Source: Mayamaea pseudoterrestris (lineage: Eukaryota). From it: a stretch of 64,000 nucleotides of DNA. Of the stretch, positions 14,201-38,800 are shown piece by piece. Location of the stretch: the NCBI GenBank assembly GCA_027923505.1, contig BROI01000007.1, positions 186,001 through 250,000 on the forward strand, read 5' to 3'. Position 1 is the first letter of the stretch. Every line of letters starts with the position of its first letter. Below the pieces are notes generated by a model. The model searched no databases, was not told the DNA's origin, and was given only the letters and a program-made list of their open reading frames with translations. The translations under genes were made by a program, and so were the position numbers.

Positions 14201-17200
14201 ACCATTCTGGTGTATTTTGGGCACCTACAGGGCTTGCTGTAGGGGCGTTTGAATGTCATGGCATCCGCAGGCTAAGACTGGTGACAAGTTGTCACCAAAT
14301 ACATTGCTATCCCCTGAGACTCCAGCCAAGCCTACCAACTTGTAGCGCAGCCTGATTTATGTGTTAGCACCATACTGATGTAATTTGGGCACCTACAGGG
14401 CTTGCTGTAGGGGCGTTTGAATGTCCCGGCATCTGCGGGCTGAGACTGGTGACAAGTTGTCACCAAATACATTGCCATCCCCTGAGACACCAGCCAAGCC
14501 TACCATCTTGTAGCGCAGGCAGCCTGATTAATGATGTTGGCACCATTCTGGTGTATTTTGGGCACCTACAGGGCTTGCTGTATGTACGTTTGAATGTCAC
14601 AGCATCTGCGGGCTGAGACTGGTGACAAGTTGTCACCAAATACATTGCCATTACCTGAGACATCCGCCAAGCCTACCATCTTAGAGCGCAGGCAGCCGAA
14701 ATAATGATATTGGCACCATTCTGGTGTATTTTGGGCACCTACAGGGCCTGCTGTAGGGGCGTTTGAATGTCATGGCATCTGCGGGCTGAGACTGGTGACA
14801 AGTTGTCACCAAATACCTTTCCATCCCCTGAGACACCAGCCAAGCCTACCAACTTGTAGCGCAGCCTGAATACTGATGTTGTCACCATTCTGGCGTATTT
14901 TGGGCACCTACAGGGCTTGCTGTAGGGGCGTTTGAATGTCACGGCATCTGCAGGCTGAGACTGGTGACAAGTTGTCACCAAATACATTGCCATCCCCTGA
15001 GACACCAGCCAAGCCTACCATCATGTAGTGCTGCCTGATTAATGATGTTGGCACCATTCTGGTGTATTTTGGGCACCTACAGGGCTTGTTGTAGTGGCGT
15101 TTGAATGTCACAGCATCTGCGGGCTGAGACTGGTGACAAGGTTGTCACCAAATACATTGCCATCCCCTGAGACACCAACCAAGCTTACCATCTTGTAGCG
15201 CAGCCTAACGGATGGTGTAGGCACCTTTCTGGTGTATTTTGGGCACCTATAGGGCTTGCTGTAGGGGCGTTTGAATGTCACGGCATCTGCGGGCTGAGAC
15301 TGGTGACAAGGTTGTCACCAAATACATTGCCATCCCCTAAGACACCAGCCAAGCCTACCATCTTGTAGTGCTGCCTGATTAATGATGTTGGCACCATTCT
15401 GGTGTATTTTGGGCACCTACAGGGCTTGCTGTAGGGGTGTTTGAATGTCACGGCATCTACGGGCTGAGACTGGTGACAAGTTGTCAACAAATACATTGCC
15501 ATCCCCTGAGACACCAGCAAAGCCTACCATCTTGTTGCGCAGCCTGAATAATGATGTTGGCACCATTCTGGTAAATTTGGTCACCTACAGGGCTTGCTGT
15601 AGGGGCAGTTGAATGTCACGGCATCTGCAGGCTGAGACTGGTGACAAGTTGTCACCAAATACATTGCCATCCCCTGAGACACCAACCAAGCTTACCATCT
15701 TGTAGCGCAGCCTAACTGATGATGTAGGCACCTTTCTGGTGTATTTTGGGCACCTATAGGGCTTGCTGTAGGGGCGTTTGAATGTCACGGCATCTGCGGG
15801 CTGAGACTGGTGACAAGTTGTCACCAAATACATTGCCAACCCCTGAGACACCAGTCAAGCCTACCATCTTGTAGCGCAGCCTGAATAATGATGTTGGCAC
15901 CATTCTGGTGTATTTTGGGCACCTACAGGGCTTGCTGTAGGGGCATTTGAATGTCACGGCATCTGCGGGCTGAGACTGGTGACAAGTTGTCACCAAATAC
16001 ATTGCCATCCCCTGAGACACCAGCCAAGCCTACCATCTTGTAGCGCAGCCTGATTAATGATGTTGGCACCATTCTGGTGTATTTTGGGCATCTACAGGAC
16101 TTGCTGAAAGGGGAGTTTGAATGTCACGGCATCTGCGGGCTGAGACTGGTGACAAGTTGTCACCAAATACATTGCCATTACCTAAGACATCCGCTAAATC
16201 TACCATCTTGTAGCGCAGCCTGAATAATGATGTTGGCACCATTCTGGTGTATTTTGGGCACCTACAGGGCTTGCTGTAGGGGCGTTTGAATGTCACGGCA
16301 TCTGCGGGCTGAGACTGGTGACAAGTTGTCACCAAATACATTGCCATCCCCTGAGACACCAGCCAAGCCTACCATCTTGTAGCGCAGCCTGAATAATGAT
16401 GTTGGCACCATTCTGGTGTATTTGGGCACCTACAGGGCTTGCTGTAGGGGCGTTTGAATGTCACGGCATCTGCGGGCTGAGACTGGTGACAAGTTGTCAC
16501 CAAATACATTGCCATCCCCTGAGACACCAGCCAAGCCTACCATCTTGTAGCGCAGCCTAACTAATGATGTTGGCACCATTCTGGTGTATTTTGGGCACCT
16601 ACAGGGCTTGCTGTAGGGGCGTTTGAATGTCACGGCATCTGCGGGCTGAGACTGGTGACAAGTTGTCACCAAATACATTGCCATCCCCTGAGACACCAGC
16701 CAAGCCTACCATCTTGTAGCGCAGCCTGAATAATGATGTTGGCACCATTCTGGTGTATTTTGGGCACCTACAGGGCTTGCTGTAGGGGCGTTTGAATGTC
16801 ACAGCATCTGCGGGCTGAGACTGGTGACAAATTGTCACAAAATACATTGCCAACCCCTGAGACACCAGTCAAGCCTACCAACTTGTAGCGCAGCCTGAAT
16901 AATGACGTTGGCACCATTCTGGTGTATTTTGGGCACCTACAGGGCTTGCTGTAGGGGCGTTTGAATGTCACGGCATCTGCGGGCTGAGACTGGTGACAAG
17001 TTGTCACCAAATACATTGCCAACCCCTGAGACACCAGCCAAGCCTACCAACTTGTAGTGCTGCCTGAGTAATGATGTTGGCACCATTCTGGTGTATTTTG
17101 GGCACCTACAGGGCTTGCTGTAGGGGTGTTTGAATGTCACGGCATCTTTGGGCTGAGACTGGTGACAAGTTGTCACCACATACATTGCCATCCCCTGAGG

Positions 17201-20200
17201 CATCCACCAAGCCTACCATCTTGTAGCGCAGCCTGAATAAGGATGTTGGCACCAATCTGGTGTATTTTGGGCACCTACAGGGCTTGCTGTAGGGGCGTTT
17301 GAATGTCACGGCATCTGCGGGCTGAGACTGGTGACAAGTTGTCACCAAATACATTGCCAACCCCTGAGACACCAGCCAAGCCTACCATCTTGTAGTGCTG
17401 CCTGAGTAATGATGTTGGCACCATTCTGGTGTATTTTGGGCACCTACAGGGCTTGCTGTAGGGGCGTTTGAATGTCACGGCATCTGCGGGCTGAGACTGG
17501 TGACAAGTTGTCACCAAATACATTGCCATCCCCTGAGACACCAGCCAAGCCTACCATCTTGTAGCGCAGCCTGAATAATGATGTTGGCACCATTCTGGTG
17601 TATTTTGGGCACCTACAGGGCTTGCTGTAGGGGCGTTTGAATGTCACGGCATCTGCGGGCTGAGACTGGTGACAAGTTGTCACCAAATACATTGCCATCC
17701 CCTGAGACACCAGCCAAGCCTACCAACTTGTAGCGCAGCCTGAATAATGATGTTGGCACCATTCTGGTGTATTTTGGGCACCTACAGGGCTTGCACTAGG
17801 GGCGTTTGAATGTCACAGCATCTGTGGGTTGAGACTGGTGACAAGTTGTCACCAAATACCTTGCCATCCCCTGAGACACCAGCCAAGCCTACCATCTTGT
17901 AGCGAAGCCTAACTAATGATGTTGGCACCATTCTGGTGTATTTTGGGCACCTACAGGGCTTGCTGTAGGGGCGTTTGAATGTCACGGCATCTGCGGGCCG
18001 AGACTGGTGACAAGTTGTCACCAAATACATTGCCATTCCCTGAGTCACCAGCCAAGCCTTCCATCTTGTAGCGCAGCCTGAATAATGATGTTGGCACCAT
18101 TCTGGTGTATTTTGGGCACCTACAGGGCTTGCTGTAGGGGCGTTTGAATGTCACGGCATCTGCGGGCTGAGACTGGTGACAAGTTGTCACCAAATACATT
18201 GCCATTCCCTGAGACACCAACCCAGCCTTCCAACTTGTAGCGCAGCCTGAATAATGATGTTGGCACCATTCTGGTGTATTTTGGGCACCTACAGGGCTTG
18301 CTGTAGGGGCGTTTGAATGTCACGGCATCTGCGGGCTGAGACTGGTGACAAGTTGTCACCAAATACATTGCCATCCCCTGAGACACCAGCCAAGCCTACC
18401 ATCTTGTAGCGCAGCCTGAATAATGATGTTGGCACCATTCTGGTGTATTTTGGGCACCTACAGGGCTTGCTGTAGGGGCGTTTGAATGTCACGGCATCTG
18501 TGGGTTGAGACTGGTGACAAGTTGTCACCAAATACCTTGCCATCCCCTGAGACACCAGCCAAGCCTTCCATCTTGTAGCGCAGCCTGAATAATGACGTTG
18601 GCACCATTCTGGTGTATTTTGGGCACCTACAGGGCTTGCTGTAGGGGCGTTTGAATGTCACGGCATCTGCGGGCTGAGACTGGTGACAAGTTGTCACCAA
18701 ATACATTGCCATTCCCTGAGACACCAACCAAGCCTACCAACTTGTAGCGCAGCCTGAATAATGATGTTGGCACCATTCTGGTGTATTTTGGGCACCTACA
18801 GGGCTTGCTGTAGGGGCGTTTGAATGTCACAGCATCTGTGGGTTGAGACTGGTGACAAGTTGTCACTAAATGCATTGCCATCCCCTGAGACACCAGCCAA
18901 GCCTACCATCTTGTAGCGAAGCCTAACTAATGATGTTGGCACCATTCTGGTGTATTTTGGGCACCTACAGGGCTTGCTGTAGGGGCGTTTGAATGTCACG
19001 GCATCTGCGGGCCGAGACTGGTGACAAGTTGTCACCAAATACATTGCCATTCCCTGAGTCACCAGCCAAGCCTTCCATCTTGTAGCGCAGCCTGAATAAT
19101 GATGTTGGCACCATTCTGGTGTATTTTGGGCACCTACAGGGCTTGCTGTAGGGGCGTTTGAATGTCACGGCATCTGCGGGCTGAGACTGGTGACAAGTTG
19201 TCACCAAATACATTGCCATCCCCTGAGACACCAACCAAGCCTACCAACTTGTAGCGCAGCCTGAATAATGATGTTGGCACCATTCTGGTGTATTTTGGGC
19301 ACCTACAGGGCTTGCTGTAGGGGCGTTTGAATGTCACGGCATCTGCGGGCTGAGACTGGTGACAAGTTGTCACCAAATACATTGCCATCCCCTGAGACAC
19401 CAGCCAAGCCTACCATCTTGTAGCGCAGCCTAACTAATGATGTTGGCACCATTCTGGTGTATTTTGGGCACCTACAGGGCTTGCTGTAGGGGCGTTTGAA
19501 TGTCACGGCATCTGCGGGCTGAGACTGGTGACAAATTGTCACCAAATACATTGCCAACCCCTGAGACACCAGTCAAGCCTACCAACTTGTAGTGCTGCCT
19601 GAGTAATGATGTTGGCACCATTCTGGTGTATTTTGGGCACCTACAGGGCTTGCTGTAGGGGCGTTTGAATGTCACAGCATCTGCGGGCTGAGACTGGTGA
19701 CAAGTTGTCACCAAATACATTGCCATCCCCTAAGACACCAGCCAAGCCTACCATCTTGTAGTGCTGCCTGATTAATGATATTGGCACCATTCTGGTGTAT
19801 TTTGGGCACCTACAGGGCTTGCTGTAGGGGCGTTTGAATGTCACGGCATCTGCGGGCTGAGACTGGTGACAAGTTGTCACCAAATACATTGTCATCCCCT
19901 GAGACACCAGCCAGGCCTACCATCTTGTAGCGCAGCCTAACTAATGATGTTGGCACCATTCTGGTGTATTTTGGGCACCGACAGGGCTTGCTGTAGGGGC
20001 GTTTGAATGTCATGGCATCTGCGGGCTGAGACTGGTGACAAGTTGTCACCAAATACATTGCCATCCCCTGAGACACCAGCCAAGCCTACCATCTTGTAGC
20101 GCAGCCTGAATAATGATGTTGGCACCATTCTGGTGTATTTTGGGCACCTACAGGGCTTGCTGTAGGGGCGTTTGAATGTCATGGCATCTGCGGGCTGAGA

Positions 20201-20282
20201 CTGGTGACAAGTTGTCACCAAATACATTGCCATCCCCTGAGACACCAACTAAGCCCACCAACTTGTAGCGCAGCCTGAATAA
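11296..20282 (+). repeat. 169-bp tandem satellite array, ~53 monomers
   Basis: Monomer TTGGCACCATTCTGGTGTATTTTGGGCACCTACAGGGCTTGCTGTAGGGGCG...TGGTGACAAGTTGTCACCAAATAC...GCCTGAATAATGATG. Period of 169 is confirmed by ORF-track spacing (e.g. 16430, 16599, 16768, 16937). Confidence 0.98.
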
Positions 20283-23729: not shown

Positions 23730-24920
23730 CTACATGGCCGACGCCTTGATGGCGTCCGTGACATTGTTGAGCTCAATGCAGAAGCTCGAGATCGATCGAT
23801 CTAAAATAACTTCCTCCTCTTCCTCCTCTTCAAAATTCAGCAAACCTTCGACTTGATCAATGCTGCCTCGCAATGATCCATCCATTATCATACTGGCAGC
23901 AGTCATTTCCGCCTTTTCCGGCGGCACTCTCAAGATGCGCGCCAGTTCCGTGATGTATATGGATTGATACAAGTTGGCGACGGCAACCATATTGTGCTCA
24001 ATAACGCCGCGTTCCATTATGGTCAGTCCGTCGCCCATGACTGCCTTTTGATGATCAGCCAAGGAAGATTCAAACTTTACCAATTCTTGAGGCTGCAAGA
24101 TTTGATGCATGTACATCTTTTTCATAATTTGCGAATGACTCTCCATTCCTTGAATGCTATCCAACTGGTCGAGACGAGCATCTTTGTAAATGTGTGCTAA
24201 GATTCGCTGTCGCTGCGGACCGCTAGGAGCAAGGATCGCGCACGTGACGGCTCGCCCAAGCATTTGCAACAAACTCTCCGCGTCCACCAAATCAAAAGCT
24301 TCGCTTAACTCATGGTATCGCTGCGCCGCCTGCATAAACTTGCGGTTCGCGTCCAAGACACGCGCGTATGTAGACTTGTAGCGAAGCAAAAGAGCCTTGT
24401 TGTTGCTTGCGTCGACCCGCTGCACAACAGAGCCGGCCTTGGTGACTGCGGCATCTGCCTGCTCTGTCTCGTCCTCGTTAAGAAAGCATTCGGCAATCTT
24501 GACAAAGACGTTCATCTTATCCGCAGGCGAAATGTAGTAGACACTATTGTTGTCGTCATCCATGCGAAGTTCCGCGAGAATGCGTGCAGCTCCAGCGTAA
24601 TCCGTGTTAGTTGGATGATTGATCTTGTGCTCGAAAAGCTTCTGACGGAGTTGATTGTCAGCAGCATTCTCGACCGTAACAGGTAGATGACCAAGAGCCT
24701 TAATAATGACATCTTCAATGTGATCGAATGCATCGGGAAGGAAGGTCGGGGATGCGACTGTCGCCTGGATAAAATGAGCTGATAAGGATCGCTGCTCGCC
24801 TTGACCGACGCTTCCGCGTCGCTGCTGGCCACCGAAACTCGAAAAAATGGATCGAATCGAGTCATAAGCCTTGTTTTGAATTCCTGTATTAATGGAAAGG
24901 ATGAGAGCTTGGAGATCCAT
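23730..24920 (-). CDS. CSN4: COP9 signalosome subunit 4
   Basis: 'VKIAECFL', 'YARVLDANRKFMQAAQRYHELS', 'CAILAPSGPQRQRILAHIYKDARL', 'HQKA..GDGLTIMERGVIEHN', PCI domain 'GSIDQVEG'. ATG at 24920 gives 396 aa, a typical CSN4 size. Confidence 0.93.
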   Translation of the reverse strand: MDLQALILSINTGIQNKAYDSIRSIFSSFGGQQRRGSVGQGEQRSLSAHFIQATVASPTFLPDAFDHIEDVIIKALGHLPVTVENAADNQLRQKLFEHKINHPTNTDYAGAARILAELRMDDDNNSVYYISPADKMNVFVKIAECFLNEDETEQADAAVTKAGSVVQRVDASNNKALLLRYKSTYARVLDANRKFMQAAQRYHELSEAFDLVDAESLLQMLGRAVTCAILAPSGPQRQRILAHIYKDARLDQLDSIQGMESHSQIMKKMYMHQILQPQELVKFESSLADHQKAVMGDGLTIMERGVIEHNMVAVANLYQSIYITELARILRVPPEKAEMTAASMIMDGSLRGSIDQVEGLLNFEEEEEEEVILDRSISSFCIELNNVTDAIKASAM

Positions 24921-25384
24921 GATACTGCTGCTACTGGTAGTAAATTCGATTGATGGATCTTCGATGGCTCGACGGTTTCCAGAAAAGTACGAGCATGCAG
25001 GAAGGCGTGCATCAAAAATCCTCTGAAGTCCTAGCGGTACACTAGTCTTTGCACGATTGCGCATCGACCAAAAACAAGCGACGATCGAGTCCGTCGCGCA
25101 CCACCATTATGCTGCTGTCTATGCAAATAAACACATTCGCGGAGCGGGGAGGTGGTGGGATCAATGGTTTAAAAGGATGCAATGACTTTTTCGTGCACTT
25201 CGCGCGCACAAACTTTCCCTATCAATTGAAACCAAAGGAAATGGACTACCAGTAGTGCATGGCACTTCCATATGCACATGCAGTGATGATATGAGTGGCT
25301 AGCTTGGTACTAGTACTTCATGTGGAATGTTGAAGTGTATTGAATACAAATGCTGTTGGCTTGCTCCGACTAACTGCAAAATAT

Positions 25385-25817
25385 TAAGTGTTTAGAGACA
25401 AACTGGGAGCTACAGAGGGTAACAAGCTTGGTGCTGCATGTCACAGGCACTTGGATCACTTGACAGCACACTTGATGGCAAGCTGCCGAGTTGAGTGCAT
25501 GGAGACAAACTGGGACCCGAAGGAGACTGGGTCATGCCCTAGGTGACACGCTGGGCTTTGCACTTGGATCATCTGATGGCACACTTGATGGCAAGCTGCT
25601 GGGTTGGGTGCTGGGAGACAAACTGGGAGCTACAGAGGGCAACAAGCTTGATGCTGCACTGTGAAGGAGACTGGGTCATGCACTAGGTGACTCACTTGGG
25701 CTTGGCACTTGGATCACTTGACAGCACACTTGATGGCAAGCTACTGGGCTGTCAAGTGCTGGGAGATGAACTGGGAGTTACAGAGGGGGACGAGTTTGGT
25801 GTGTAAAACTGCACTGG
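25385..25817 (-). repeat. Decayed ~150-bp repeat with 12-bp substructure encoding P-S-x-x on the minus strand (left part; split by the copia)
   Basis: 'GAGACAAACTGGG' recurs at ~25396, 25502, 25615 and (variant) 25763. The minus strand reads PSSLPSSVPS...PSAKPS. CpG-poor. Confidence 0.7.
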
Positions 25818-26130
25818 TTGTAACTTGTAAATCAAATCGTTGCACCTTTCGCTTGTAGCTGTCCTTGGATGGCCAATCCAAGCTTGCAGTTGCTACAATA
25901 CGAGAGACGAATAAATCGCTTTCTTAACTCTTCAAGCTTAGTAAGTCTGCTTGTTTCTACTCTATATCGCACTAGTTTCAGCAATATACTCGTTGAATCG
26001 CTTCGAAGCCGTCGCTGCCACGCATCACGCGATCGTGAGGCTGTGGTGAGCCGCGAGTGCCGCTGTGTCACCCTATCGGACATTCGGTGTGACTTGCCCG
26101 ATTTTCGCTGTTTTCGTTCGCATCCTGCAA
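25818..26130 (-). repeat. 3' LTR (313 bp)
   Basis: + strand TTGTAACTTG...CATCCTGCAA; matches 32090-32401 except one local difference (GAGAGACGAATAAA vs GAGACGCGATAAA). Confidence 0.96.
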
Positions 26131-26140
26131 CTCCCCTCAA
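26131..26140 (-). other. Polypurine tract (sense TTGAGGGGAG)
   Basis: CTCCCCTCAA on the + strand directly abuts the 3' LTR; the ORF stops at 26148. Confidence 0.85.
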
Positions 26141-26147
26141 GTCATAC

Positions 26148-29100
26148 CTAATAGTTCGATTCCTTGAAGAGCAGGTTCTTTAAGTGCTTGCTTGCCGTAG
26201 CCCGCGGAAGAAACTTGGTAAGTACATCCGCCGGGTTTGTCGTTCCCATGATGTGGTTGAAATTAATAATTCCCGCCGCAATCGCTTCGCGTACACGGTG
26301 AAATGCCAGTGCATTGTGTCGCTTCGTCAGACTAGAGTGCGGTAAGTTGCTGCTTTGCGTTACCGACTTGTTGTCTCCAAACATCCATGAAGGTCCGTCG
26401 AGCGGAACTCCCAACATGCGTAGCGTGAAGCGGAGATCCATGATCTGCTCCGTGCTCACTCTCGCTGCTACAAACTCCGAGCCGTACGTCGCCGTCTCGA
26501 CCGTCGCTTGGCGTTTCGAAAACCAATCGACGACTGTTCCATTCAACATGTGTAGCATGCCCATCGCTGCCCGTCCCGTCGTGTAATCATGGTACAGGTT
26601 TGCATCTTCAAACGTTGACATTCGCACCGCCTTGCCGCGCGGCGTGGGCATGTTCCACGGAAGCTCTTCGCAGATCTTGCCGTACACACTGTAGTCCCAA
26701 TCCATCTTGTCAACTGTCGCGTATCGCTCGTCCGTTGGAATCAAAACATTGAATCGAATCGCTCCATCCGGGTATCGTCGTAAGTATCCGCAAATATGCT
26801 TCAACCGTTCCAAGTGCCCCGCTCGTGGCGCAGCTCGGAATCTCCCCATAGTCATGACAGCGCAGTGAATGTCGAATTGACATAAACTTACTGCCCATTG
26901 CAACGCACCAATTATCGATTGATACTTCGCAATTCCGTCGTCGTCAAGTTCTTTTGTTTCGTCGAGTTCCGGATGATCGCCGTCGCGTAGTGGACTTGTC
27001 TGCGGTCGCGGTTCTTCGCCGAACATTTCCTTGTAGTTCGCTAGTAGCCTTGTGACGTACTTCTTCGCTCCGAAGCATAGTACGCCGTCGTCGTCTCGCC
27101 AAACGTCTGCGCCCAAATGATATGCCAATGGACCGACGCCCTTCAACTTGTAGTTGTAGTTCTCAATTAAAAGATCCGTTAGTTCCTTCGGATTCTTCAT
27201 TGCTATCGCTAAATCGTCGACATACACACAAACGTATTCGTAGTGCGTGCCTTTATCGCGCATCCACACGTCCGGTTCTGCGATACACGGCGTGAAGCCA
27301 ATGTCGCGGAGTGTGTCTGCAAAGTGCTCGTGCCAGCGTGCGCCTGACGTGCGAAGACCGTATAATGCCTTCACGATCGTGAGCGTGTGACCCTCGAGCT
27401 CCCCGAACTCCGGACCTGCCACGATATAAACCTTCTCTTTCGTTTTCGCTTCCAAGTATGCGTTGCCGACGTCAGCTGCCCACAGTTCCAGACCGTTGAG
27501 TTCCGCTAACATCGCTACCATTCGTAGACTTCGTAATGACACAACGCCCGAGTAAACTGAATCCTTCGGCGGCTCTGTCATATGTCCTCCTGCGACGAGT
27601 CGTGCTTTCCGTCGCAAATCGTGCTTGACATCGAATATCATGTGCACGTTTATTCGTTTCCACGGCGCCGGCATGACCTTACCGACTCCTTGATCTGCGA
27701 ACGTATCGTAATCATTTATCTGATTTAATTCCGTTCGAATCGCATCCGTCCACAGCGTGTTGCCGTTGATCTCGTCGAGAGCTTTCGCATCTTTATAATT
27801 GCGCGGCAACCTTACGCCGAATTTGTAGCGTACGCCGTTTGCTTTCGATTTTCGTTTCGCTGCTGTCACCATCTGTCGAAACTTCTTTCGCTTCCGAGTG
27901 TAATGTTCCAGCTGCTTCCATCCTGGCTTGTCGAGTAAGCCGTGCTTGAGTCCATACTCTGCGATCGTTATTGGATCGTCCTTTTTCATGATCGCGAGAG
28001 GCTCCCACGTCGTCGTTCCGTCGGTCCATTCGACGAGAACGTTACTTGAACTTCCCTTGTATGTCGGATCGTTCGGTTTCAAATTAAGCTCGTGTCCGAT
28101 TACTTTCGTGAATACCCACTGAGTCGCCGGATCGTTTCGTATATCTTCGTCCATCTGTCGTTCGATTAAATCTGACAGTTCGTTGTAACTTATTAAGTCT
28201 TTCGCTGGCTCCTCTCCCATCTGGATCAAGAAACCTTTTGTCGTTTCGAGTAGCTCGTTATCGCGTACTTCGATATATTCGCATACAGTCGCTCGCATTT
28301 TCTGACCGTTTTCGTGTTCCCTTACGAACGTGCGTCCGATGAGTTCGCTTGGAGAGAACAGAGGGCATTTATTCCCTGATTCTTGCTCAGCCCTTCTGAA
28401 GAACTTCGCTGGTACGTTGGCGTGGTTCGCCATCGGAATCGTTTCGTCGTCGTTTCCTTCGTAGTTGTCGTGACTACTTTCTGTCGCATTCGTGCTGTGG
28501 TAGCGTCCTGTCGCGAGATCTGGTGTTTCAAAATTCCGCTCGCTTGCGCGTGTAGCTTCTTCAGAAATCTCCCCTCCAGACTCAGGGAAGGAAGGCAACT
28601 CTCGTGGTAACAAGTAGCTGCGCGAGACCACGTTGGAGCGCGGAATCGCCTGAAGCGTGTCGTCCGTCAGAACGAGAAAAGTCATATGCGGGCCGCTATT
28701 CTCTGCGATGCCCACGAATCGGCCGTTGCCAGATCGTACCGCCGAGGGAAAACTCCCCTGCGCCTCAAACGTGACCGGTTCCCACCACTTGAAATGTAAC
28801 AAAGGCGAAATATCCGGCAAATTTCCGAACGCAACTTCCGTTGGAGTGCGCCATCCCAGCGATTTCGTCGCGAGGACGTTCAGAATCATGATTACGAATT
28901 TAATCAGCAAAACCCAGCAATGGCCTGGCGAACCCGAATCTCGTTGGAGGTTCTCCATCATTGGCTTAATGTGCGACGTGTGACGTTCGCATGGATTTTG
29001 TTCTGGATGACCCGGTTCTGTGGTCACTTGAGGAATATTGTACATCCGACAGAGATCCCTCACAGCCTTGCCAGTCTCCGACTTGGCATTGTCGCTGAGC

Positions 29101-31940
29101 AGTCCGTTAGGAGCACCCACTTCGCGGATAAAATCCTCTAACGCGTTTGACATTTCGCTTTCCGACTTCATCGGGTAGCCGCGCGTGTAAAAACTTTCTC
29201 GTCCAACAAAGAGCTGCATCTTAGTAGCTCCCCCATGCCCTAGAATTCCATCATCCAAAGCTGGCGTGTCAGAGTGTATCGTGTCCGTGGCGAATAGTTC
29301 GCGCAACCGCTGAACGTTCGCGGCCGGAAATCGTGATTTCGTGAGGTGTCGAAATGGTAATCGCGGATGTTCGCTGAGATGATACCATGCTTCTGTGTGA
29401 CGTAAAGTCTGTTGAACTCGCTCAGTCGGGACCCATCCGAGGTACGGCCGAAGAGCATTATAGTCCGGTTCCTTGCTTCGCAGCTTCCGCAAATTAACGC
29501 GTGAAAACTGAGCGTGTCGCACGCACCGATTGATCAGTACGTCAAGTTCGTCGCCAGTGCGTGTCGGCGTGTGACGATTGCGGTGCGTGATACCGTCATC
29601 GTCGAATCGTTCGTCGAAAGATCCATAATCGTGATCGCGTTCGTCGAAATCGTCGTGCGCGCGCTCGACATCGTAAACAGTCGGGTCCCACGGCACATCC
29701 GACGTCATGATGACAGTCGGATACTTATCCAAATCATCGAACGTGGGTTTCGTCACGTCCAAGTACACCAGGCCATCGCGAATCGCCAATGGCAAAACGT
29801 AGCCTCCAATGTTCGTCGTAATTCGTTGCGTTCCGCCAAACATGGTCGGAATATCGTCGACGCGATGTCCCATTGCGCGCAATTGATTCGGGCAATGAAT
29901 CGTCGGTCCGTCTCGCTTTAAAGCATACTGGTGACACAAAAGCAGAATGGTTTCGCCACTAAGGGTCTTAGCCAGTCCAGCTGCAGTGCCAATCTTGAGA
30001 GCTGGGACAATATGATCGTCAATACCAGTCACATCCACCTCGGCGTTCGTTTCCGAAACGACGAGCATGTCTCCTCCGCATAAGCCTCCGTTCGCGCCAC
30101 TGTCGATGAGCGCGCCTTCGTTGATCCGCTCGTAGTGTGCGCGATTGACGCGCATACGACGATGCATGTTGAAGCTGAATGTACCTCGTCCGGTGTTATC
30201 AGTCGTCAACGATCCTGTCACTTGCTGAGTTGTAGTACTCGCATTATTCGCTTGCAGAACCGATCGTGCAGCCGTTTGGACTGACATTCCACTATTGCCT
30301 GGCTGAATATTAATCGTGCCAGGAACGCTTGCGTGATCGTTCGCTACAGATTCCGTCGCGTGACGCTCTTGATGCGCCGCGTTGACTTGCGTCTGCGTCG
30401 TAGCCGTGCCTCGTTGGTTGCGCGGTCGCCATCCGTTTTCGGGTGTCTTGGGCGCCGTCGCACGCTTGTCCTTCAACTGCTTTCGCTGATCGAACTTCAT
30501 CTCCAACCAGACTTCATCCTTCACGCTCGCGTGAGGTTTCTTCATGATCGCTGCAAATCGCTCCGCCGATAAGCCGCTTGGAGTCGCGCCGCCATTGCCG
30601 CCGCCGCCTCCTTTCGTTCCACTAGACTGCGCTTGATTGATTGTGCACTTAGTCTTCGTCGTCGATGGGTGTTTCTTGTCATACTTGATGCAGCACTCTT
30701 CTAAGTGTGCGTACAACTGCGCAAAATTGTCTTCCGAGTCGTGTTGCCCCATGTGTTTCTTGATGGCAATCATTCCGTCAAAACCTGCTAGCGAGGCGCT
30801 GAATCCAGTGTGCTCGGAGAAAGCGTCGCGTAGCATGTCGTATCGTTGTAAACCTGTCAGAGCTTCTGCGTCCATTTCGAGCAGCCAGATGACTTTCTTG
30901 TAGAACAGTGCGAGAAATTCGATCGTCGGCCGTGACCACTTCTCGGTCAGCCGCATTCCCTGCAGTTCCGTTCGCGCGCGTTCCTTCTCGATGTGAGCAG
31001 TAGCGCCTTCTTCGTATCGCGTTCGCAATCGTTGGTAGACTTCGCGTCCGTCCATCGTCTTCTTGAACTGCTGTACTGCGAGTGATGCAGACGGAGTTCG
31101 ACAGTGCGTGAGAAAGATCCTGTACACAAACACATTCTTCTTTGCATACGCCTTTTGTTCCTTCGGTCCCTTTTCCTTCGGGTCATAATCGTCGTCAAAG
31201 ACTTCGTGGAAGTCGTGCAATGTAGCGATGACTTTCAACTCGGAAATCCACTGTTTCCACGAGGAATCCAGCTTCATTTCTTTACAATCCTTCGCCGAGA
31301 ACTTGATAGACTTCGTAAATTGGTCTGAATACTTCTCGTCGTCTTCGTCGTCGCCGAGGTCCAGTACGGATGTCGGTGACTGTTTCGTGTCCACGTCCAC
31401 GCTTGTCGGTGGCACCTTGTCGGCCGAGTCGGGCTTCGACTCGTCGCCTTCGTTCGTTAGCGTGGAGTCCTTGGATTCGTCCTTCTTGGATTCCGTTTCG
31501 CTTTCCTTCGCTGGAGGTTTCGCTCCGCTTCCGCTGCCCACGCTCGCAATGTTGCGTGCTTGGACTCGTTCCTTCGCTCGTGCTGTGACGAACGTCGCCA
31601 GCGTTTCGGTGGTCAGTTGCGACCATGTCTTGATGTCAGGCGACTCTTGCGCCAAATACCATTCGATCGCGTTCGTGATCGTGCGTTGTTTCATCTTCGT
31701 TAGCGAGTGTTCGCTCGTTTCCTGCGTGACATTGTCGCCATCGTCAGTCGTCGTCGTTGTCGTCGTCGTGACGTTCCACTTCGTCGCGAAATCGTCGTAC
31801 TCCATCTCGATCAATTGCGTAAGCGATTCTACTCCGAGTTCGTCGAATAACTCCTTGAACTGAGGATCTTGGAAAACGCCTACGTTCTCTTCGTAAACAT
31901 GCGCAAAAGCCACGTCTTTCTGCGCGCGAGTTTCCGCCAT
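26148..31940 (-). CDS. Copia Gag-Pol polyprotein (Gag, aspartic protease, integrase + chromo-like module, RT, RNase H), 1930 aa from the first ATG
   Basis: Protease 'ALIDSGANGG'; integrase D-D-E 'FATDTIH / LLSDNAKSE / EQNPCERH'; RT 'RKARLVAGGH', 'ADVGNAYL', 'KALYGLRTSG', 'VYVDDL'; RNase H 'FEDAN', 'WFSKRQATVETATYGSEFVAA', 'GDNKSV', 'NPADVLTK'. Confidence 0.97.
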   Translation of the reverse strand: MAETRAQKDVAFAHVYEENVGVFQDPQFKELFDELGVESLTQLIEMEYDDFATKWNVTTTTTTTTDDGDNVTQETSEHSLTKMKQRTITNAIEWYLAQESPDIKTWSQLTTETLATFVTARAKERVQARNIASVGSGSGAKPPAKESETESKKDESKDSTLTNEGDESKPDSADKVPPTSVDVDTKQSPTSVLDLGDDEDDEKYSDQFTKSIKFSAKDCKEMKLDSSWKQWISELKVIATLHDFHEVFDDDYDPKEKGPKEQKAYAKKNVFVYRIFLTHCRTPSASLAVQQFKKTMDGREVYQRLRTRYEEGATAHIEKERARTELQGMRLTEKWSRPTIEFLALFYKKVIWLLEMDAEALTGLQRYDMLRDAFSEHTGFSASLAGFDGMIAIKKHMGQHDSEDNFAQLYAHLEECCIKYDKKHPSTTKTKCTINQAQSSGTKGGGGGNGGATPSGLSAERFAAIMKKPHASVKDEVWLEMKFDQRKQLKDKRATAPKTPENGWRPRNQRGTATTQTQVNAAHQERHATESVANDHASVPGTINIQPGNSGMSVQTAARSVLQANNASTTTQQVTGSLTTDNTGRGTFSFNMHRRMRVNRAHYERINEGALIDSGANGGLCGGDMLVVSETNAEVDVTGIDDHIVPALKIGTAAGLAKTLSGETILLLCHQYALKRDGPTIHCPNQLRAMGHRVDDIPTMFGGTQRITTNIGGYVLPLAIRDGLVYLDVTKPTFDDLDKYPTVIMTSDVPWDPTVYDVERAHDDFDERDHDYGSFDERFDDDGITHRNRHTPTRTGDELDVLINRCVRHAQFSRVNLRKLRSKEPDYNALRPYLGWVPTERVQQTLRHTEAWYHLSEHPRLPFRHLTKSRFPAANVQRLRELFATDTIHSDTPALDDGILGHGGATKMQLFVGRESFYTRGYPMKSESEMSNALEDFIREVGAPNGLLSDNAKSETGKAVRDLCRMYNIPQVTTEPGHPEQNPCERHTSHIKPMMENLQRDSGSPGHCWVLLIKFVIMILNVLATKSLGWRTPTEVAFGNLPDISPLLHFKWWEPVTFEAQGSFPSAVRSGNGRFVGIAENSGPHMTFLVLTDDTLQAIPRSNVVSRSYLLPRELPSFPESGGEISEEATRASERNFETPDLATGRYHSTNATESSHDNYEGNDDETIPMANHANVPAKFFRRAEQESGNKCPLFSPSELIGRTFVREHENGQKMRATVCEYIEVRDNELLETTKGFLIQMGEEPAKDLISYNELSDLIERQMDEDIRNDPATQWVFTKVIGHELNLKPNDPTYKGSSSNVLVEWTDGTTTWEPLAIMKKDDPITIAEYGLKHGLLDKPGWKQLEHYTRKRKKFRQMVTAAKRKSKANGVRYKFGVRLPRNYKDAKALDEINGNTLWTDAIRTELNQINDYDTFADQGVGKVMPAPWKRINVHMIFDVKHDLRRKARLVAGGHMTEPPKDSVYSGVVSLRSLRMVAMLAELNGLELWAADVGNAYLEAKTKEKVYIVAGPEFGELEGHTLTIVKALYGLRTSGARWHEHFADTLRDIGFTPCIAEPDVWMRDKGTHYEYVCVYVDDLAIAMKNPKELTDLLIENYNYKLKGVGPLAYHLGADVWRDDDGVLCFGAKKYVTRLLANYKEMFGEEPRPQTSPLRDGDHPELDETKELDDDGIAKYQSIIGALQWAVSLCQFDIHCAVMTMGRFRAAPRAGHLERLKHICGYLRRYPDGAIRFNVLIPTDERYATVDKMDWDYSVYGKICEELPWNMPTPRGKAVRMSTFEDANLYHDYTTGRAAMGMLHMLNGTVVDWFSKRQATVETATYGSEFVAARVSTEQIMDLRFTLRMLGVPLDGPSWMFGDNKSVTQSSNLPHSSLTKRHNALAFHRVREAIAAGIINFNHIMGTTNPADVLTKFLPRATASKHLKNLLFKESNY

Positions 31941-32089
31941 CGTTGTCGTCGTGACAATGTTCTTGCTATCACCTGCGGAACTTTCCGGGCCAAGAACCAA
32001 CGTGCGTCCACGTTACTTCGTAAATCAATAGTACTCTTCGTCGATAAAGTCTCTATGCCGAGGCAATGAGTCTCAAGACAGTGTTAATC

Positions 32090-32401
32090 TTGTAACTTGT
32101 AAATCAAATCGTTGCACCTTTCGCTTGTAGCTGTCCTTGGATGGCCAATCCAAGCTTGCAGTTGCTACAATACGAGACGCGATAAATCGCTTTCTTAACT
32201 CTTCAAGCTTAGTAAGTCTGCTTGTTTCTACTCTATATCGCACTAGTTTCAGCAATATACTCGTTGAATCGCTTCGAAGCCGTCGCTGCCACGCATCACG
32301 CGATCGTGAGGCTGTGGTGAGCCGCGAGTGCCGCTGTGTCACCCTATCGGACATTCGGTGTGACTTGCCCGATTTTCGCTGTTTTCGTTCGCATCCTGCA
32401 A
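32090..32401 (-). repeat. 5' LTR (312 bp)
   Basis: Direct repeat of 25818-26130, located upstream of gag on the minus strand. Confidence 0.96.
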
Positions 32402-32790
32402 CTGGGAAACAGACTGGCTCCTGAGCCAGGTGAGTCACTGGGCTTGGCGCTTGGATCACTACTTGATGGCACCATTAGTGAGTGCTTGGAGACAAACTGG
32501 GAGCCACTGAGGCGGACAAGTTTGGTGCTGCACTGGGAAAGAGACTGGGTCCTCCGCTAGATGACACATTGGGCTTTAGGCTTGGGTCACTTGATGGCAC
32601 ACTTGATGGCGTACTTGATGTCAAGCTGCTGGGGTTGTGCTAAGAGTCAACTGGGATCCACTGAGGGTGGCAAGCTTATTGTGGCACTGGGAAGGAGACT
32701 GGGTACTGCGCCAGATGATGTGGGATTGGCGCTTGGGTTTCTTGATGGCAAGCTGCTTGGTTGAGTGCTGAGAGACAGACAAGTTTGCAT
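32402..32790 (-). repeat. Right part of the decayed P-S-x-x-coding repeat
   Basis: Continues the same unit (CTGCACTGG|GAAACAGACTGG; GAGACAAACTGGG at ~32489). The minus strand reads SDPSAKPSDSPGSGASLFP. Confidence 0.7.
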
Positions 32791-32868
32791 TTCAATCTTT
32801 TCCTCAAGTGACAACCCCCGCTGTCATGCGCCAGATTGTCATGCCATTGAAAGTGACCCACAGAGGGC

Positions 32869-33470
32869 TTTGGCCTTCAGGTCAGCAGCTTCTGTTGGCA
32901 GGTACTATGTGACTGCCTAACCTAGCAGTGGCAAACATCAGATCCCCACAACCTCTTTGTAAACTGGCTTGGGGCATGATCCAAGGTCACAAATCGATAT
33001 TGTATAGGGCAATCACTTTGTGCATTTGCCTCCTGCTTGTTGCCTGCCTCCAGATCCACAGGAGTTGCTGGTATGTACCACCCAACTGCCAAACACCAAC
33101 CTAGCAGTGGCAAACATGAAGTGCCCACACACTCTATGCGTACAGCCACTGTGCATGATCCAAGGGCACAAGACATACCTCCTTGGTGAATTTGGTTTGC
33201 GCATCAGCCTCCTGCCTGCCTTTGGCCTTCAGGTCAGCAGCTTCTGTTGGCAGGTACTATGTGACTGCCTAACCTAGCAGTGGCAAACATCAGATCCCCA
33301 CAACCTCTTTGTAAACTGGCTTGGGGCATGATCCAAGGTCACAAATTGATATTGTATAGTGCAATCACTTTGTGCATTTGCCTCCTGCTTGTTGCCTGCC
33401 TCCAGATCCACAGGAGTTGCTGGTATGTACCACCCAACTGCCAAACACCAACCTAGCAGTGGCAAACATG
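32869..33470. repeat. CpG-poor tandem repeat: ~176-bp monomers in a 352-bp dimer
   Basis: ~250 bp are nearly identical at 32869 and 33221 (352 apart). 'AACCTAGCAGTGGCAAACAT' occurs at ~32919, 33098, 33271 and 33450. Confidence 0.85.
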
Positions 33471-33737
33471 CAGAGGGGGACATGCTGCACTGGGAAGAAG
33501 ACTACTACGTTCTGTACCAGGTGACACACTGGGCACGGTGCTAGGGTCACTTGATGGTAAGCATGACTACAACATATAGGGCATACCGGTACTGTACAGT
33601 AGCTAAACCCAACTTCACTCAACTTCACTCAAGTATGAAGGAGTCTGTGTCACAGAACAACTCGGTCATTTTGTGAAGTCATTGCATGAGCCTAACATGA
33701 TGTCAATCATGTCGCAGCGGCAGTACTTATTAATCTT

Positions 33738-34490
33738 GTGGAGCATGTCCGGAGAGATCCTACCACTAATATAATGAACTTGGCTCCTCCAGCTCCCATA
33801 ACTGAACCAGCCGTTGCCGAGCCTGCCCAAAAAGTAGAATCGGCAATTGCACACGCTGCACCTGCATGTGAGGCCGCTGTTGCCGCTCCAGCGACGCCGA
33901 TGGAAGCAGCGTCCTTGTATTTGATTGACTGTACCAAGAAATCACTGACATCGGCATTGCCCCCCGTCTCTGTCAAGGCATTAAGAAAGACGGGAATTGT
34001 TTTTGAGTCCTATGCGGGAGTTTTGCAGCTTAATCGTGGGATGAAAAGGAGTTTTTTAAACATACGGCTGCCGTGCTTGCCGCGTGACCGTCGTTCCATT
34101 CCATATGGCGAAGTGAAGAAGTACATAGTCCTCAAGGATGGAATTTGTCTAGTGTACTTAGAGCAGGATGCCCCATCACCCCTCTATGCTCTATCGTTGG
34201 ACGAGATGGATATTGTATCGGAAGATTCGAGGTGGCCGTTCGCCGAGTCTGTTTCGATTGATCCTGTTCCTCCCAAGAATCGGAATCGGAATTTTTCGAC
34301 GATTATATTAAAGCCGAAGCGCGACGGGTCAATATTGTACCAGTTTAGTTTCAATATTGTGGAAACAGGCAAGGATGTTGTTAAACGCTTTGTGGATGCT
34401 GTAGTGCATGCACCAAAGGTGCTACTTGTGCTGGCGACTACATCCTCAGTGAGCGAGGAAGACGAGGTGATAAACAACAAGGAGATATAA
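33738..34490 (+). CDS. Hypothetical protein with probable PH-like domain (true start may be ATG 33773)
   Basis: 250-aa ORF; Ala/Pro-rich N-terminus followed by a PH-like pattern 'YAGVLQL...KKYIVLKDGICLVYLEQDAPSPLYALSL...YQFSF...VVKRFVDAV'. Confidence 0.6.
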   Translation: MEHVRRDPTTNIMNLAPPAPITEPAVAEPAQKVESAIAHAAPACEAAVAAPATPMEAASLYLIDCTKKSLTSALPPVSVKALRKTGIVFESYAGVLQLNRGMKRSFLNIRLPCLPRDRRSIPYGEVKKYIVLKDGICLVYLEQDAPSPLYALSLDEMDIVSEDSRWPFAESVSIDPVPPKNRNRNFSTIILKPKRDGSILYQFSFNIVETGKDVVKRFVDAVVHAPKVLLVLATTSSVSEEDEVINNKEI

Positions 34491-34590
34491 ATTATTTCTT
34501 TTATAAATACAATCCGTTTTCCATGCAATTTTAATCTAATCTATACGCAGTTACATCAAACTACTTCCCTCGCTGCTACCGATCTGTCGA

Positions 34591-35508
34591 CTACTCTTTC
34601 TCGAGGTACTTATGGATATCATCCCCGCCGTAAACTTTTGACGCATGCTGAAACATTTGTTTAATCGACTTGACTACCAAGGGAGTAGATATCCATTGGG
34701 GAATCTTGCCACCAATTTCAAGCTGCAAAATGTATTCAACGTCAAAAGAATCTTTACCGGTCGGCTGCATGGTCGTACTGAACAAGCGCGACTTGGCTCG
34801 CGTGTGCCGCTCCGTAGGAGGAAACATATAGTCGTGCCATGCTTCTAGCTCAACGCCCCAGATAATGCAAGCGCCATCGAGAAAGTCTTGGCATCCACAA
34901 AGCGTCAGCTGCTCCCGAGAATCAACGCCAAGATTCGGCTTGGTTTTGCAGTAACCGACACCAAGCCGACTGCATTCGCCAAACTTGCCATATCCCATTG
35001 CCATGTTGGCATAGTCCAAGTCGTTGATCGGATAAATCTCGTAAACTTGATCAATTTGGTCGTCCCATTTCTTTCGTTCATCGCAATCCATGATAAAGTT
35101 AGTCATTGCCTGACCGACACACGGTCCTTGAATCGTTGCTCGTACTCGAAGCAATGGTGCTGGATGTCCCTGGAAATTGTCGATTCGGTCAATCGATCGT
35201 ACTGACTGTGAACCTGTCTTGTGCGACTCAACCCTCCTCCACGGCAGATCAGTCGCATCTTCGACGGTAGCAAAACCACCGTTTTTTCGGTTAATAACAT
35301 TTCTCAGCAAAGGCGAAACTGCTTCCATTCGTGAGAAAAGTTCCTCAAAATCTGGCAGCTCAATATCGACTCCGTCTGATTTGGACGGAGCTTTCTGTTG
35401 AAGCGTAGGTCGTTCCTGAAAGAGGGTGCTAGCAAAGGCAAGAGCGTAGGAATCTGGTACTAGCAGTAGACCAAGCACGTAAAGGAATACGAGTTGAAGT
35501 GAAAGCAT
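34591..35508 (-). CDS. START/SRPBCC lipid-binding-domain protein, probably plastid-targeted
   Basis: Signal peptide + 'ALA-F'; START-like 'FIMDCDERKKWDDQI', 'GVDSREQLTL', 'VEYILQLEIGGKIPQWISTPLV'. Confidence 0.72.
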   Translation of the reverse strand: MLSLQLVFLYVLGLLLVPDSYALAFASTLFQERPTLQQKAPSKSDGVDIELPDFEELFSRMEAVSPLLRNVINRKNGGFATVEDATDLPWRRVESHKTGSQSVRSIDRIDNFQGHPAPLLRVRATIQGPCVGQAMTNFIMDCDERKKWDDQIDQVYEIYPINDLDYANMAMGYGKFGECSRLGVGYCKTKPNLGVDSREQLTLCGCQDFLDGACIIWGVELEAWHDYMFPPTERHTRAKSRLFSTTMQPTGKDSFDVEYILQLEIGGKIPQWISTPLVVKSIKQMFQHASKVYGGDDIHKYLEKE

Positions 35509-35833
35509 GATGGCGAGACTCGACTTGCTTGCTTATGACAAAATGACAGTGTACTAGCAGGTGGTCGACTCCTCGCTGTACGATTGATACAGCGTCGGCC
35601 TTGATGAGAGTTGATGGCGGCCGAATCTTGTTGGCTTGAAGAGCCGACGAAGCGCGTCGATTTTCTACACCCTTGACTGATTGAAACGTGGGTCATACGT
35701 CATTATGGAACCGGTACGACTTTTTAAATGACGTCCACTCATCACCATTCGTCGCGCCCGGTTTCCTTTTTTCTTTCTCGTGGCGCATCATCCAAAAGCT
35801 GCTCCATTTCTACCATAGCTACAGCATTATACC

Positions 35834-38800
35834 ATGAACTCGCATCATATTAAGTCAGTCAACACGGACGAACGTTCGACGAAGCGTTTGACCTTCGCAT
35901 CGAGCCGTAAGCGATCAAAGCTCACGTCCGCTGACACGTACCGCACCTTTCAGGGTCGACGCGTCGGTATTGGAACAAGCGCCGCCACTCGAGAGGAGCA
36001 AGTGCATAATCCACGACCGAAGAAGAAACAAAGACAACGGAAGTCTAAGGAACAAAAGGAGGCGGAAGATAAGGCGATTTTATCGGACCAAGACGATAGT
36101 GATTCCGATGTCGAAACCAACAAGTCAAACTTTGCCAGCGAGCTCGACATTGCGCTTGACAGGAACGCATCTATTGTTTTTGGAAGCTTCCATCGCGAAG
36201 TATGGCATTTAGTACGGAGTCTTCCCGAGATTATCCACCATGCTGACAAGATTATACACCTTTTGATGGCTTACATGCTATCGCCGGCGACTGATCCAGA
36301 AACCAAATCAAATATTGGCGAAACGGACTTACTGGCAGACTCGAAGCGGGCTCGCTACGTTGTCAACTACGCAACAATTGACATTCTGCATCTCGTGGCT
36401 GTCTTGGCGCGCGATTTGCGTCATGAGATACATCCCTTTATGCACCAGACGATTATTCCGCGCATCTTGAACGATCTTTTGCACCCGCCGGCACATGAAA
36501 ATAACAAGCAGCAAATGCCACTGGATGTATGCTTTGTTGAAGCTGCATTCCGTACAGTGTCCTACCTATTTCGATACGATGCGGAAGCCCTGTTAGCGGA
36601 GAAGGCCGGTGGCGAAGAGCCATGCTTGGAGCCGATTCGCGAGTATTACGGCTTGGTCCTTGCGAGTCGGCGCGATGTGGTGCGACGTCTCGGAGCCGAA
36701 ACATTTGCTCCACTCGTGCGCAAGCTTTCCGAATCGGCGAGAAAGCGTCATTTGAAACGACTCTTGAAAGCATTGGCGCGGAACAGTGCAGGCGATTCTT
36801 CTGCTGCTCGTCGGTTGCAGTCTGATGCAATCGATGGAATCTCAACCTTCCTATTTGAAGTTGCTCGTGGTGTTCAGCGACGCTTGCACTCTAAGGGCAT
36901 TGTTGTAATCAAGGCTGTAGAAGAGGCTGTGAGCTGTCAAGATGAATTGAATGGTGGCTATGAACTGTTGATTAATGTTGGAGAGGCGTTTGTGAACCGA
37001 TTGACGCGGTCGTTAGATGCACAAAATATTGCAGCGGTCTTCCGTGTGATGTGTAAACCAGTTAAGACGGTAATCTCGTCTGAGGGACGGTTAGTTGGCC
37101 AAGGCTTCGTGGGTGTATTACGCTTAATTGGTAAACTTTGCTCGCGCCACGAGTCGTTACTCGAAACGGTAGAACTACTTGATCAGCTTTTATATGTGAG
37201 CATTTTTGATCAGTTATCTTTGAAGCAACAAGAATCGGTTTTGGATCTCCTTTCGCTAGTATGGAAGCGTGCACCAGAACAGAAGGAATTCACTGGACGA
37301 ATGAACAGCAGGATCTGTAATCTTATAAAAACATGCATTGGTGTCGGAAGTAAGGATACTAATGAAAACGCCGGCGCACATGCCTTGTCAGTTGCACTAG
37401 ACTTGATGGCATATTTGCCTGTAGAAGTTGCCATGAAAACTGTCGGTTCAGCGCTTTTATCTGTCGCAGCTGCGTCAGATTTTGAAGTGGGTGACTCGAC
37501 CTTGCCTCTCCTGTTCGCCGTGGTTGGAGCACGGGATCGCGCAATCGATGTTGGCGGAACTGACGCGCTATTCGATCTACACCTCGCAAGACATTGCCTT
37601 GTAAATGAAACAGATCGAGAGAAATTGTTGCATAACTTATTGCTTTTAACCGGAGGAGATGATTGGACGACCGAAAAGGTCGCTAGTGCAGGTATAGCTG
37701 TGCAGTGCCTCGCTTTCATTGCCGCGACTACGGCTGACGAACGAAGAGCCACGATGATGTTCGAACAGGTAGCAAAGGGTATTGTGGCGGTCATGAAGGT
37801 TACTGCTTCATCAACTGCAATCAACGATATCGACGCAAAGCGAAAAGTGTCACTCACATTTTCGCTTGCGCTTGAGTCGTTGTCGTGCCTTGCAGCGTTT
37901 CAGTTGGAAGGCGTTACCAAAGACAAGCTTGTGCAGAAAGTTGTGGAAGAGGTAATGCCGCTAGCACGTGACCACCTTGTGGCTAGCCCCAGTGCGCTTT
38001 GGACAGTAAAAAGCGTTGCCGCGTATGTCCACGTGCTCCAGCAGCTTCATTTGCGTTTGAATGTTGATTTTGAACGGGCATTTGATGATTTGATACCGAA
38101 CTTACGCAGCCGCAAGCATTTTTTCCGGCTGCACACGCTCGAGATATTGTCTAGCTTTCCTTTGAGAACAATGGCTGTTGACTATGCCGACCTTGATTTG
38201 GCCGGAGATTTGGACGACGAGCCCCGCGACGGCCAACGTATACCCAAGGCAAACGTGTCATTAGCAGCGATTAGCACTTTTGGCATGCTCTCTTTGCTTC
38301 TCGCCATTGAATCGTGTCCAGTCTCATTTGAGCATGAAAGGCAATTGATATCTCAAATATCTCGTGTCAGCGTTCTTGGGCGCGGGAGACGACTGCCGAT
38401 CTATTACGCCGAAGCTGCTGCAAATCATTTGGTTGGTCTTTTGCATGTCAAATTTGCTCCTGTTTGGCCTGCTATTGTCCAGGCTATCGGTGAGTTAGCC
38501 AAGGGTCATGTGAAATGTACATGGCCCCCGATCTTCAAAAGTATTCAGTCGTTGATGGAACGCCCTCTCCGTCAGTCTTCTCCCGATGAAGACCTTTCGT
38601 GCGAAGCAACAACACTGTGTAATGTTAATAATTACTGTAGCAAATGTCTTTCTTGGGAAACCGCCGATGTTCATGCGCACAGTCTTTTCAAAAGAGATTT
38701 TGCGTCATGTCATGTGGCCGGTATCGTGTCGAAGCACGATGCGGTGGATGAGGCTACTGTACTTGAGTGGCTATGGAAAATCATCGAGAATGGTCCTGAA

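Follow-up and report, generated by a model that had tools for sequence, protein, structure and literature searches.

Background

Chromodomains on the integrases of diatom Ty1/copia retrotransposons are already published. Llorens et al. 2009 (PMC2774666) describe a putative C-terminal chromodomain on the integrases of CoDi-A elements, probably gained independently of the chromoviruses, and the entries for CoDi2.4, 3.1, 4.1, 4.3 and 7.1 (clade CoDi-A) in supplement file 4 of that paper give zero CCHC arrays, an LPIV protease motif and "Chromo Yes". CoDi-A of Llorens et al. 2009 corresponds to CoDi-I of Ustyantsev et al. 2017, and comprises CoDi2.4, 3.1, 4.1, 4.3-4.5 and 7.1 of Phaeodactylum tricornutum. 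The CoDi chromodomain is repeated in passages of later papers (PMC5348765; bioRxiv 10.1101/2024.05.11.593484), and the word "chromodomain" is not mentioned in Maumus 2009 (PMC2806351). In the Ty3/gypsy superfamily, a passage of PMC3059260 (citing Gao 2008) links chromovirus chromodomains to targeting. We analysed an element of apparent CoDi type in a stretch of 64,000 nt of the diatom Mayamaea pseudoterrestris (contig BROI01000007.1, positions 186,001-250,000), hereafter the window, to which all coordinates are relative. Between its integrase and its reverse transcriptase (RT), this element encodes a conserved module, predicted to consist of a divergent chromodomain and, ahead of it, an SH3/Tudor-like barrel.

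The element shares with CoDi-A/CoDi-I a diatom host, the order protease-integrase-RT, a gag without CCHC (no knuckle of the form CX2CX4HX4C was found in the frame by regular expression) and a chromodomain on the C-terminal side of the integrase. Its protease motif (LPLA at aa 740, with DSG at aa 637) is similar but not identical to the LPIV of CoDi-A, and its host belongs to a genus other than Phaeodactylum. The proposed assignment to the CoDi-A/CoDi-I type is based on shared character states read from the sequence. An initial annotation of the window had mentioned that chromo-like modules were noted in some CoDi elements, which agrees with the entries of Llorens et al. 2009 cited above.

Ty3/gypsy chromoviruses, whose integrase chromodomains are divided into types I and II (CR motif), likewise carry a chromodomain fused to the C-terminal side of the integrase, with a presumed role in the choice of chromatin for integration, and in the passages on their type II elements the aromatic cages are also incomplete (PMC3059260). 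The element is not a chromovirus, since its RT is of the copia type (Pfam RVT_2) and its integrase lies upstream of the RT; it further differs by the extra barrel before the chromodomain. This difference of superfamily argues for an independent acquisition of the chromodomain, as is also argued in the text of Llorens et al. 2009. To this, the present analysis adds a structural model of good confidence, the barrel upstream, a variant of the cage and the extent of the family. The barrel, the hairpin insertion and the missing third aromatic described below are undescribed in the surveyed parts of the CoDi and copia chromodomain literature; the published alignments (AF2A of Llorens et al. 2009; Figure S4 of PMC5348765) lay outside that survey and may show the cage variant.

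A conserved module between integrase and reverse transcriptase

The four peptides quoted in the initial annotation as lying between the integrase core and the RT are all present in one minus-strand frame (27954-28343, aa 1224-1353), within the single 1954-codon frame of the element (Table 1), in a stretch which is conserved and modelled with high confidence. The module formed by the barrel and the chromodomain is located between the parts matched by Pfam rve and by RVT_2. A stretch of 201 aa was recovered at 35-57% identity in 38 other RVT_2 polyproteins (1100-2240 aa), which together with one 100% match, the annotated protein itself (a hypothetical protein of Mayamaea pseudoterrestris), make up the set of 39 copia polyproteins. 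A HMMER scan of 1.84 billion representative sequences, using a 208-aa stretch (27789-28412), returned 1787 clusters (at 50% identity) at E<=1e-3, 651 at E<=1e-10 and 55 at E<=1e-30. Judged by these sequence comparisons, the stretch is a conserved unit, and neither a chance pattern nor a variable linker. Logan contigs of four coded runs were also compared with the window over 24800-33800: among the 32 best-supported in-frame differences listed (there were 105 further ones), 26 are synonymous, including both of those located in the module.

The integrase's own C-terminal region is parted from the module by an acidic, serine-rich linker of low complexity (about 90 aa; 28365-28640, aa ~1125-1216), which holds two of the six non-synonymous differences (aa 1175 and 1176) and three synonymous ones.

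Homology and predicted fold of the chromodomain

Homology was searched with the chromo part alone, aligned for 30 family members, five of which matched PF00385 (Pfam Chromo) at E<=10. Five members without the hairpin insertion were rescanned against the same profile. The segment of one relative (P0036) scored 26.4 bits (E 6.5e-6), above the cut-off of 25.1 bits, that of a second (P0030) 22.1 bits (E 1.4e-4), below the cut-off, and that of a third (P0039) gave an E-value of 0.063. These three segments are 36-45% identical to the domain of the window (42-45% for P0036 and P0030). When the family chromo profile was compared with PDB sequences, there were 8 matches at E<=10; seven of these were to chromodomains (cpSRP43, two sequences of Rhino, CDYL2, CDYL and two sequences of LHP1), each of them weak when taken singly (E 0.1-1.2). 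Searches of PDB sequences using phmmer with the sequence and using the whole-module profile returned chance matches only, without chromodomains. The nearest named clusters of the ESM Atlas carry PF00385 (score 0.82), which we consider as a lead only.

The fold was predicted with AlphaFold2 for aa 1211-1400, using an alignment of 41 sequences, and the model reached a predicted local distance difference test (pLDDT) of 86.9 and a predicted template modelling score (pTM) of 0.59. It comprises, in residue numbers of the model, a five-strand barrel with a long helix (18-83), a sheet with a C-terminal helix (91-146) and basic helices (156-182). The chromodomain is built of strands 91-98, 114-119 and 124-128 and helices 129-146, that is, a three-stranded antiparallel sheet packed on a C-terminal helix, which is the arrangement that defines the chromodomain fold; the model of the single domain (aa 1292-1365 folded alone; pLDDT 87.8, pTM 0.73) agrees.

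The two-domain model was compared with 48,161 representative PDB chains using VIA-align, and 18 of the best 20 rows were chromo, chromoshadow, HP1, CHD or cpSRP43 chains (Z 5.6-6.8, model residues 80-154), with matches to the HP1 chromoshadow domain, Chd1, CHD4, Rhino, Oxpecker, dHP1, Chp1, SUV39H1 and cpSRP43. The remaining two rows were GEN-1 and, on the barrel, a Tudor domain. A Foldseek search of the PDB with the single domain gave 43 rows, all of them chromo or chromoshadow domains except PetP, GEN1 and one remodeller entry, with probabilities mostly of 0.9-1.0 (0.75-0.82 for three Chd1/ZMET2 rows), a target-normalised TM-score of about 0.7 and 18-29% identity. The same search with the two-domain model gave weak and mixed rows (SETDB1 Tudor, tandem chromodomains, pyruvate carboxylase), and its Foldseek search of BFVD nothing interpretable. 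The predicted model thus supports a chromodomain fold for the second block. Because relatives match Pfam Chromo, one of them above the threshold, and because of the fold, homology of the second block to chromodomains is supported transitively, and we consider it very probable.

The predicted domain shares with the cellular chromodomains (HP1/CBX, Rhino, CDYL, CHD1, cpSRP43) the same fold, with 18-29% identity in the structural comparisons, and the pattern V-x-W...T-W-E-P followed by a helix. It differs from them by a conserved insertion of 15 residues in the first hairpin (HxGPL...YKGSxYN), found in most family members, by a deletion of 3 residues after the invariant Trp of the domain, which removes the GY/GF motif, and by lying below Pfam detection. 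W1299 was taken as the first position of the aromatic cage, on the basis of the HP1 residue numbers and of where the structural alignments begin, assuming no gap at these starts; this position is W, Y or F in 39 of 53 sequences. The second, placed by alignments of hidden Markov models (HMM), is W1329, a residue shared by 52 of 53. The cage therefore appears to retain two of its three canonical positions, the third falling in the 3-residue deletion, and because this third aromatic is missing, the reading of methyl-lysine is not assured.

The basic helical segment that directly follows the chromodomain (model helices 156-162 and 165-182) may be a nuclear localisation signal or a linker to the RT. 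Its KRKK and KRKSK clusters stand about 10 residues apart on the helix, in a manner resembling a bipartite nuclear localisation signal; the integrase of Ty1 ends in such a bipartite signal.

The barrel preceding the chromodomain

In the model, the first block is formed by strands 18-22, 28-41, 46-55 and 61-65, followed by helix 66-83. Its VIA-align matches (model residues 7-77) are Tudor/SH3-like barrels with Z of 4.8-5.7, namely the Tudor domains of ERCC6-L2 (5.7), 1wgs (5.5) and SMN (4.8), the tandem Tudor domain of BAHCC1 (5.4) and Spindlin-4 (5.0). An SH3/Tudor-like barrel is therefore supported for this block, as far as the predicted structure goes. The predicted barrel is similar in size to those of the Tudor, chromo-barrel and SH3-like "Royal family" (ERCC6-L2, SMN, PHF20L1, Spindlin, BAHCC1) and likewise five-stranded; it differs from them in that it matches no Pfam family by sequence and has few conserved aromatics. 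It had no usable match in the ESM Atlas. A duplicated chromodomain was considered as another origin of the barrel, of which there was no sign when it was compared with the chromodomain profile (hhalign probability 0.3%).

The initial annotation had read this stretch as a chromo-like module preceded by a block that could be Tudor- or SH3-like, and had proposed AlphaFold and Foldseek comparisons with chromo, chromo-shadow and Tudor folds. Both parts of that reading are supported: a chromo-like fold was predicted for the second block, with VIA-align and Foldseek in agreement and homology through intermediates in addition, and the first block finds its neighbours among Tudor/SH3-like barrels.

Insertion sites and proposed role

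The main copy of the element lies between genes, where it splits about 0.8 kb of degenerate repeats with units of 113-150 bp. A second, truncated copy, of which the 5' LTR (long terminal repeat; 45482-45794) is 98.7% identical, adjoins by its outer LTR end the first unit of a 181-bp satellite which extends from 45795 to the window end. The observed/expected ratio (o/e) of CpG is 0.09-0.32 in all tandem repeats of the window, 1.1-1.2 in genes and 1.54 in the element, which suggests, from base composition, a long-standing cytosine methylation limited to repeats. Both insertions (2/2) touch tandem repeats, as the initial annotation had claimed, and these repeats are CpG-depleted (o/e 0.14-0.24).

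By analogy with the Ty3/gypsy chromoviruses, the module would, after processing of the polyprotein, probably form the C-terminal end of the integrase. We infer that it could there anchor the integration complex to some feature of the chromatin on repeat-rich, CpG-methylated DNA, and that this tethering would bias insertions away from genes. Since the canonical cage is short of one of its three aromatics, the ligand may differ from the classical H3K9me3 tail. For the reading as a whole, that of a CoDi-A/CoDi-I-type element with a genuine chromodomain acting as a chromatin tether, we consider the chances to be evenly balanced, and a contribution of this tethering to the choice of insertion sites is given the same even chance. 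That satellite DNA specifically would be the target appears unlikely. A still bolder proposal, which we regard as improbable, is that the barrel and the cage-incomplete chromodomain form a distinct two-part reader of CpG-methylated satellite chromatin, recognising a feature other than H3K9me3 and directing copia elements into diatom satellite arrays.

If the integrase tether were real, it would help to account for the coexistence of active elements with densely packed genes in compact diatom genomes, and would represent a second, independently evolved, chromodomain-guided integration beside that of the gypsy chromoviruses. If the two-part reader were real, it would occur throughout a family of protist copia elements that is very large (some 1,800 clusters at 50% identity), and would be the counterpart, independently evolved in Ty1/copia, of the gypsy elements that target plant centromeres. 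Repeats make up at least 19% of the 30.6-Mb assembly of Mayamaea pseudoterrestris, chiefly Ty1-Copia elements, according to a passage of PMC9724779.

Several observations weigh against the reading of the module as a chromatin-reading integrase tether. The module sequence of the element itself gives no Pfam hit at E<=10, and hence stays short of the profile cut-off of PF00385, and none of 41 whole-module sequences matches Pfam Chromo at E<=1. All VIA-align Z values are below 8, a range where a common arrangement alone may explain the score, and no Foldseek E-value reaches 0.001 in the PDB searches with the two-domain and single-domain models (best 0.028). Aligned by HMM with Rhino and CDYL2, the family offers nothing opposite the GF/GY that carries the third cage aromatic, and 50 of the 53 sequences have Gly at position 1332. 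The window copy departs from the family consensus in the hairpin insertion (28044-28088, aa 1309-1323), with L1309 (G in 45/53), N1310 (P in 44/53) and S1323 (Y or W in 44/53). Depending on where the protease cleaves between integrase and RT, the module could also end up on the RT instead of the integrase. Lastly, tandem repeats cover 29,253 of the 56,402 non-element bases of the window (52%), and with n=2 against this background the chance that both insertions touch repeats is about 0.27.

The association with repeats may equally well, or very nearly so, reflect survivorship, insertions in a compact and gene-dense genome lasting only in non-genic DNA, which is locally mostly tandem repeats. 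The 52% share of repeats is in line with this explanation, as is the remainder of the window, which is largely host genes (TRAPPC8-like, RCC1/ChaC, DUF3593, CSN4-like, UTP20), so that selection against genic insertions would raise the chance expectation further; moreover, there are two insertions only, one of them truncated. It fits less well with the main copy, which is so young (LTRs 99% identical, intact frame) that there was little time for selective filtering, and which is surrounded by no more than about 0.8 kb of repeats, with genes on either side. In the form given in the initial annotation, a "satellite-seeking" element is not supported, since two insertions out of two are set against a background in which 52% of the non-element sequence is tandem repeats.

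It is also conceivable, though rather doubtful, that the domain has a chromo fold and does not read histone methyl-lysine, binding instead a non-histone peptide (as cpSRP43) or nucleic acid, or serving the assembly of integrase, without any part in site choice. The deleted third aromatic agrees with this, as do the 15-residue hairpin insertion, foreign to canonical chromodomains, and the sequence matches, the best chromodomain among them being cpSRP43, whose loop WTDMSDATWEP is the closest to WTDGTTTWEP of the window. Chromoshadow domains, moreover, score as high structurally (HP1alpha chromoshadow, Z 6.8; Swi6 chromoshadow, TM-score 0.71). The conservation of the first two cage positions speaks for the tether reading, and so does the position at the integrase end, which is that of the chromoviruses, where targeting is documented according to PMC3059260. 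The same source, in its passages on type II chromoviruses, describes chromodomains likewise without cage residues, there the first and usually the last aromatic, whereas the element keeps the first and second and has lost the third.

A chance resemblance in a variable linker, without any real domain, would account for the missing Pfam and PDB matches of the window sequence and for the middling structural scores, but is very improbable given the identity of 35-57% in 38 other polyproteins, the 1787 clusters, a pLDDT of 87-88 with structural neighbours that are almost solely chromo domains, one relative above the Pfam cut-off and inter-copy differences that are mostly synonymous.

Features of the element and surrounding repeats

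The coordinates of the element, of its module and of the adjoining repeats are given in Table 1. The ends of the element were located using blastn between its two ends, the LTR edge being placed so that ACTGG stands in both flanks. The two LTRs are 99.05% identical (2 mismatches and 1 gap in 315 columns). These nearly identical LTRs, the intact frame and the ACTGG duplication identify the element as a diatom Ty1/copia LTR retrotransposon which is young and apparently intact.

Table 1. Position of the element, its encoded domains and the neighbouring repeats in the window
Feature	Position	Strand	Remarks
3' LTR	25818-26132	minus	315 bp; purine-rich tract just before it in the sense direction
5' LTR	32090-32403	minus (the element's sense strand)	314 bp; blastn of the two ends and direct repeats
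Target-site duplication ACTGG	25813-25817 and 32404-32408		5 bp; read from the flanks
Uninterrupted gag-protease-integrase-RT-RNaseH frame	26148-32012	minus	1954 codons stop to stop; first Met at 31940
Integrase catalytic core, part matched by Pfam rve	29004-29186	minus	aa 943-1003; E 4.6e-4, 20.9 bits, below the 32.6-bit cut-off
Predicted SH3/Tudor-like five-strand barrel and the long helix after it	28134-28364	minus	aa 1217-1293
Peptide LIGRTFVREH	28314-28343	minus	aa 1224-1233
Peptide FLIQMGE	28212-28232	minus	
Predicted divergent chromodomain	27930-28127	minus	aa 1296-1361; three strands and C-terminal helix
Peptide QWVFTKVIGHE	28089-28121	minus	
Peptide NVLVEW...ITIAEY	27954-28043	minus	aa 1324-1353
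Basic helical segment, KRKK...KRKSK	27837-27917	minus	aa 1366-1392
Reverse transcriptase, Pfam RVT_2	27036-27671	minus	aa 1448-1659; E 3.1e-25
Left flank, degenerate 113-150-bp tandem repeats	25385-25817		CpG o/e 0.14
Same degenerate repeat family beyond the element	32404-32780		CpG o/e 0.23
Second, truncated copy	44788-45794	minus	5' LTR and ~690 bp of the gag 5' region; 93.9% identity over the whole piece

In the Logan contigs of one run (X1), 7703 contig pieces of 90-100% identity fall on 24800-33800. The summed word depth in this run is about 1,360-5,150 per 300-bp bin over the element (mostly 2,000-3,600), against 10-14 over the flanking gene, and since a summed contig word depth is no copy number, this is a sign of a multi-copy family only. 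Two runs labelled as other organisms (X6 and X7) each contain one contig, about 6.2 kb long, which matches the element (25818-32258) at about 98.6% identity, without the flanking host gene; that of X7 is self-closing via one LTR (joint 32089 to 25818). These contigs may correspond to trace carry-over of the diatom, to a close relative or to a transfer of the element.

CpG-depleted tandem repeats occupy 11296-20282, 25385-25817, 32404-33388 and 45795-64000. A 179-bp repeat beside the element (32868-33528) has a summed word depth of 33,000-44,000 in X1, against 10-14 for the flanking genes, and the highest depth in runs X2, X6 and X7 is likewise found on it; this repeat probably represents one of the major genomic satellites. 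Directly before a 169-bp satellite, a 547-bp patch (10611-11157) consists of two copies of a 273-bp unit with 100% matches, and this patch shares, by eye, a long motif with the consensus of the 181-bp satellite at the other end of the window.

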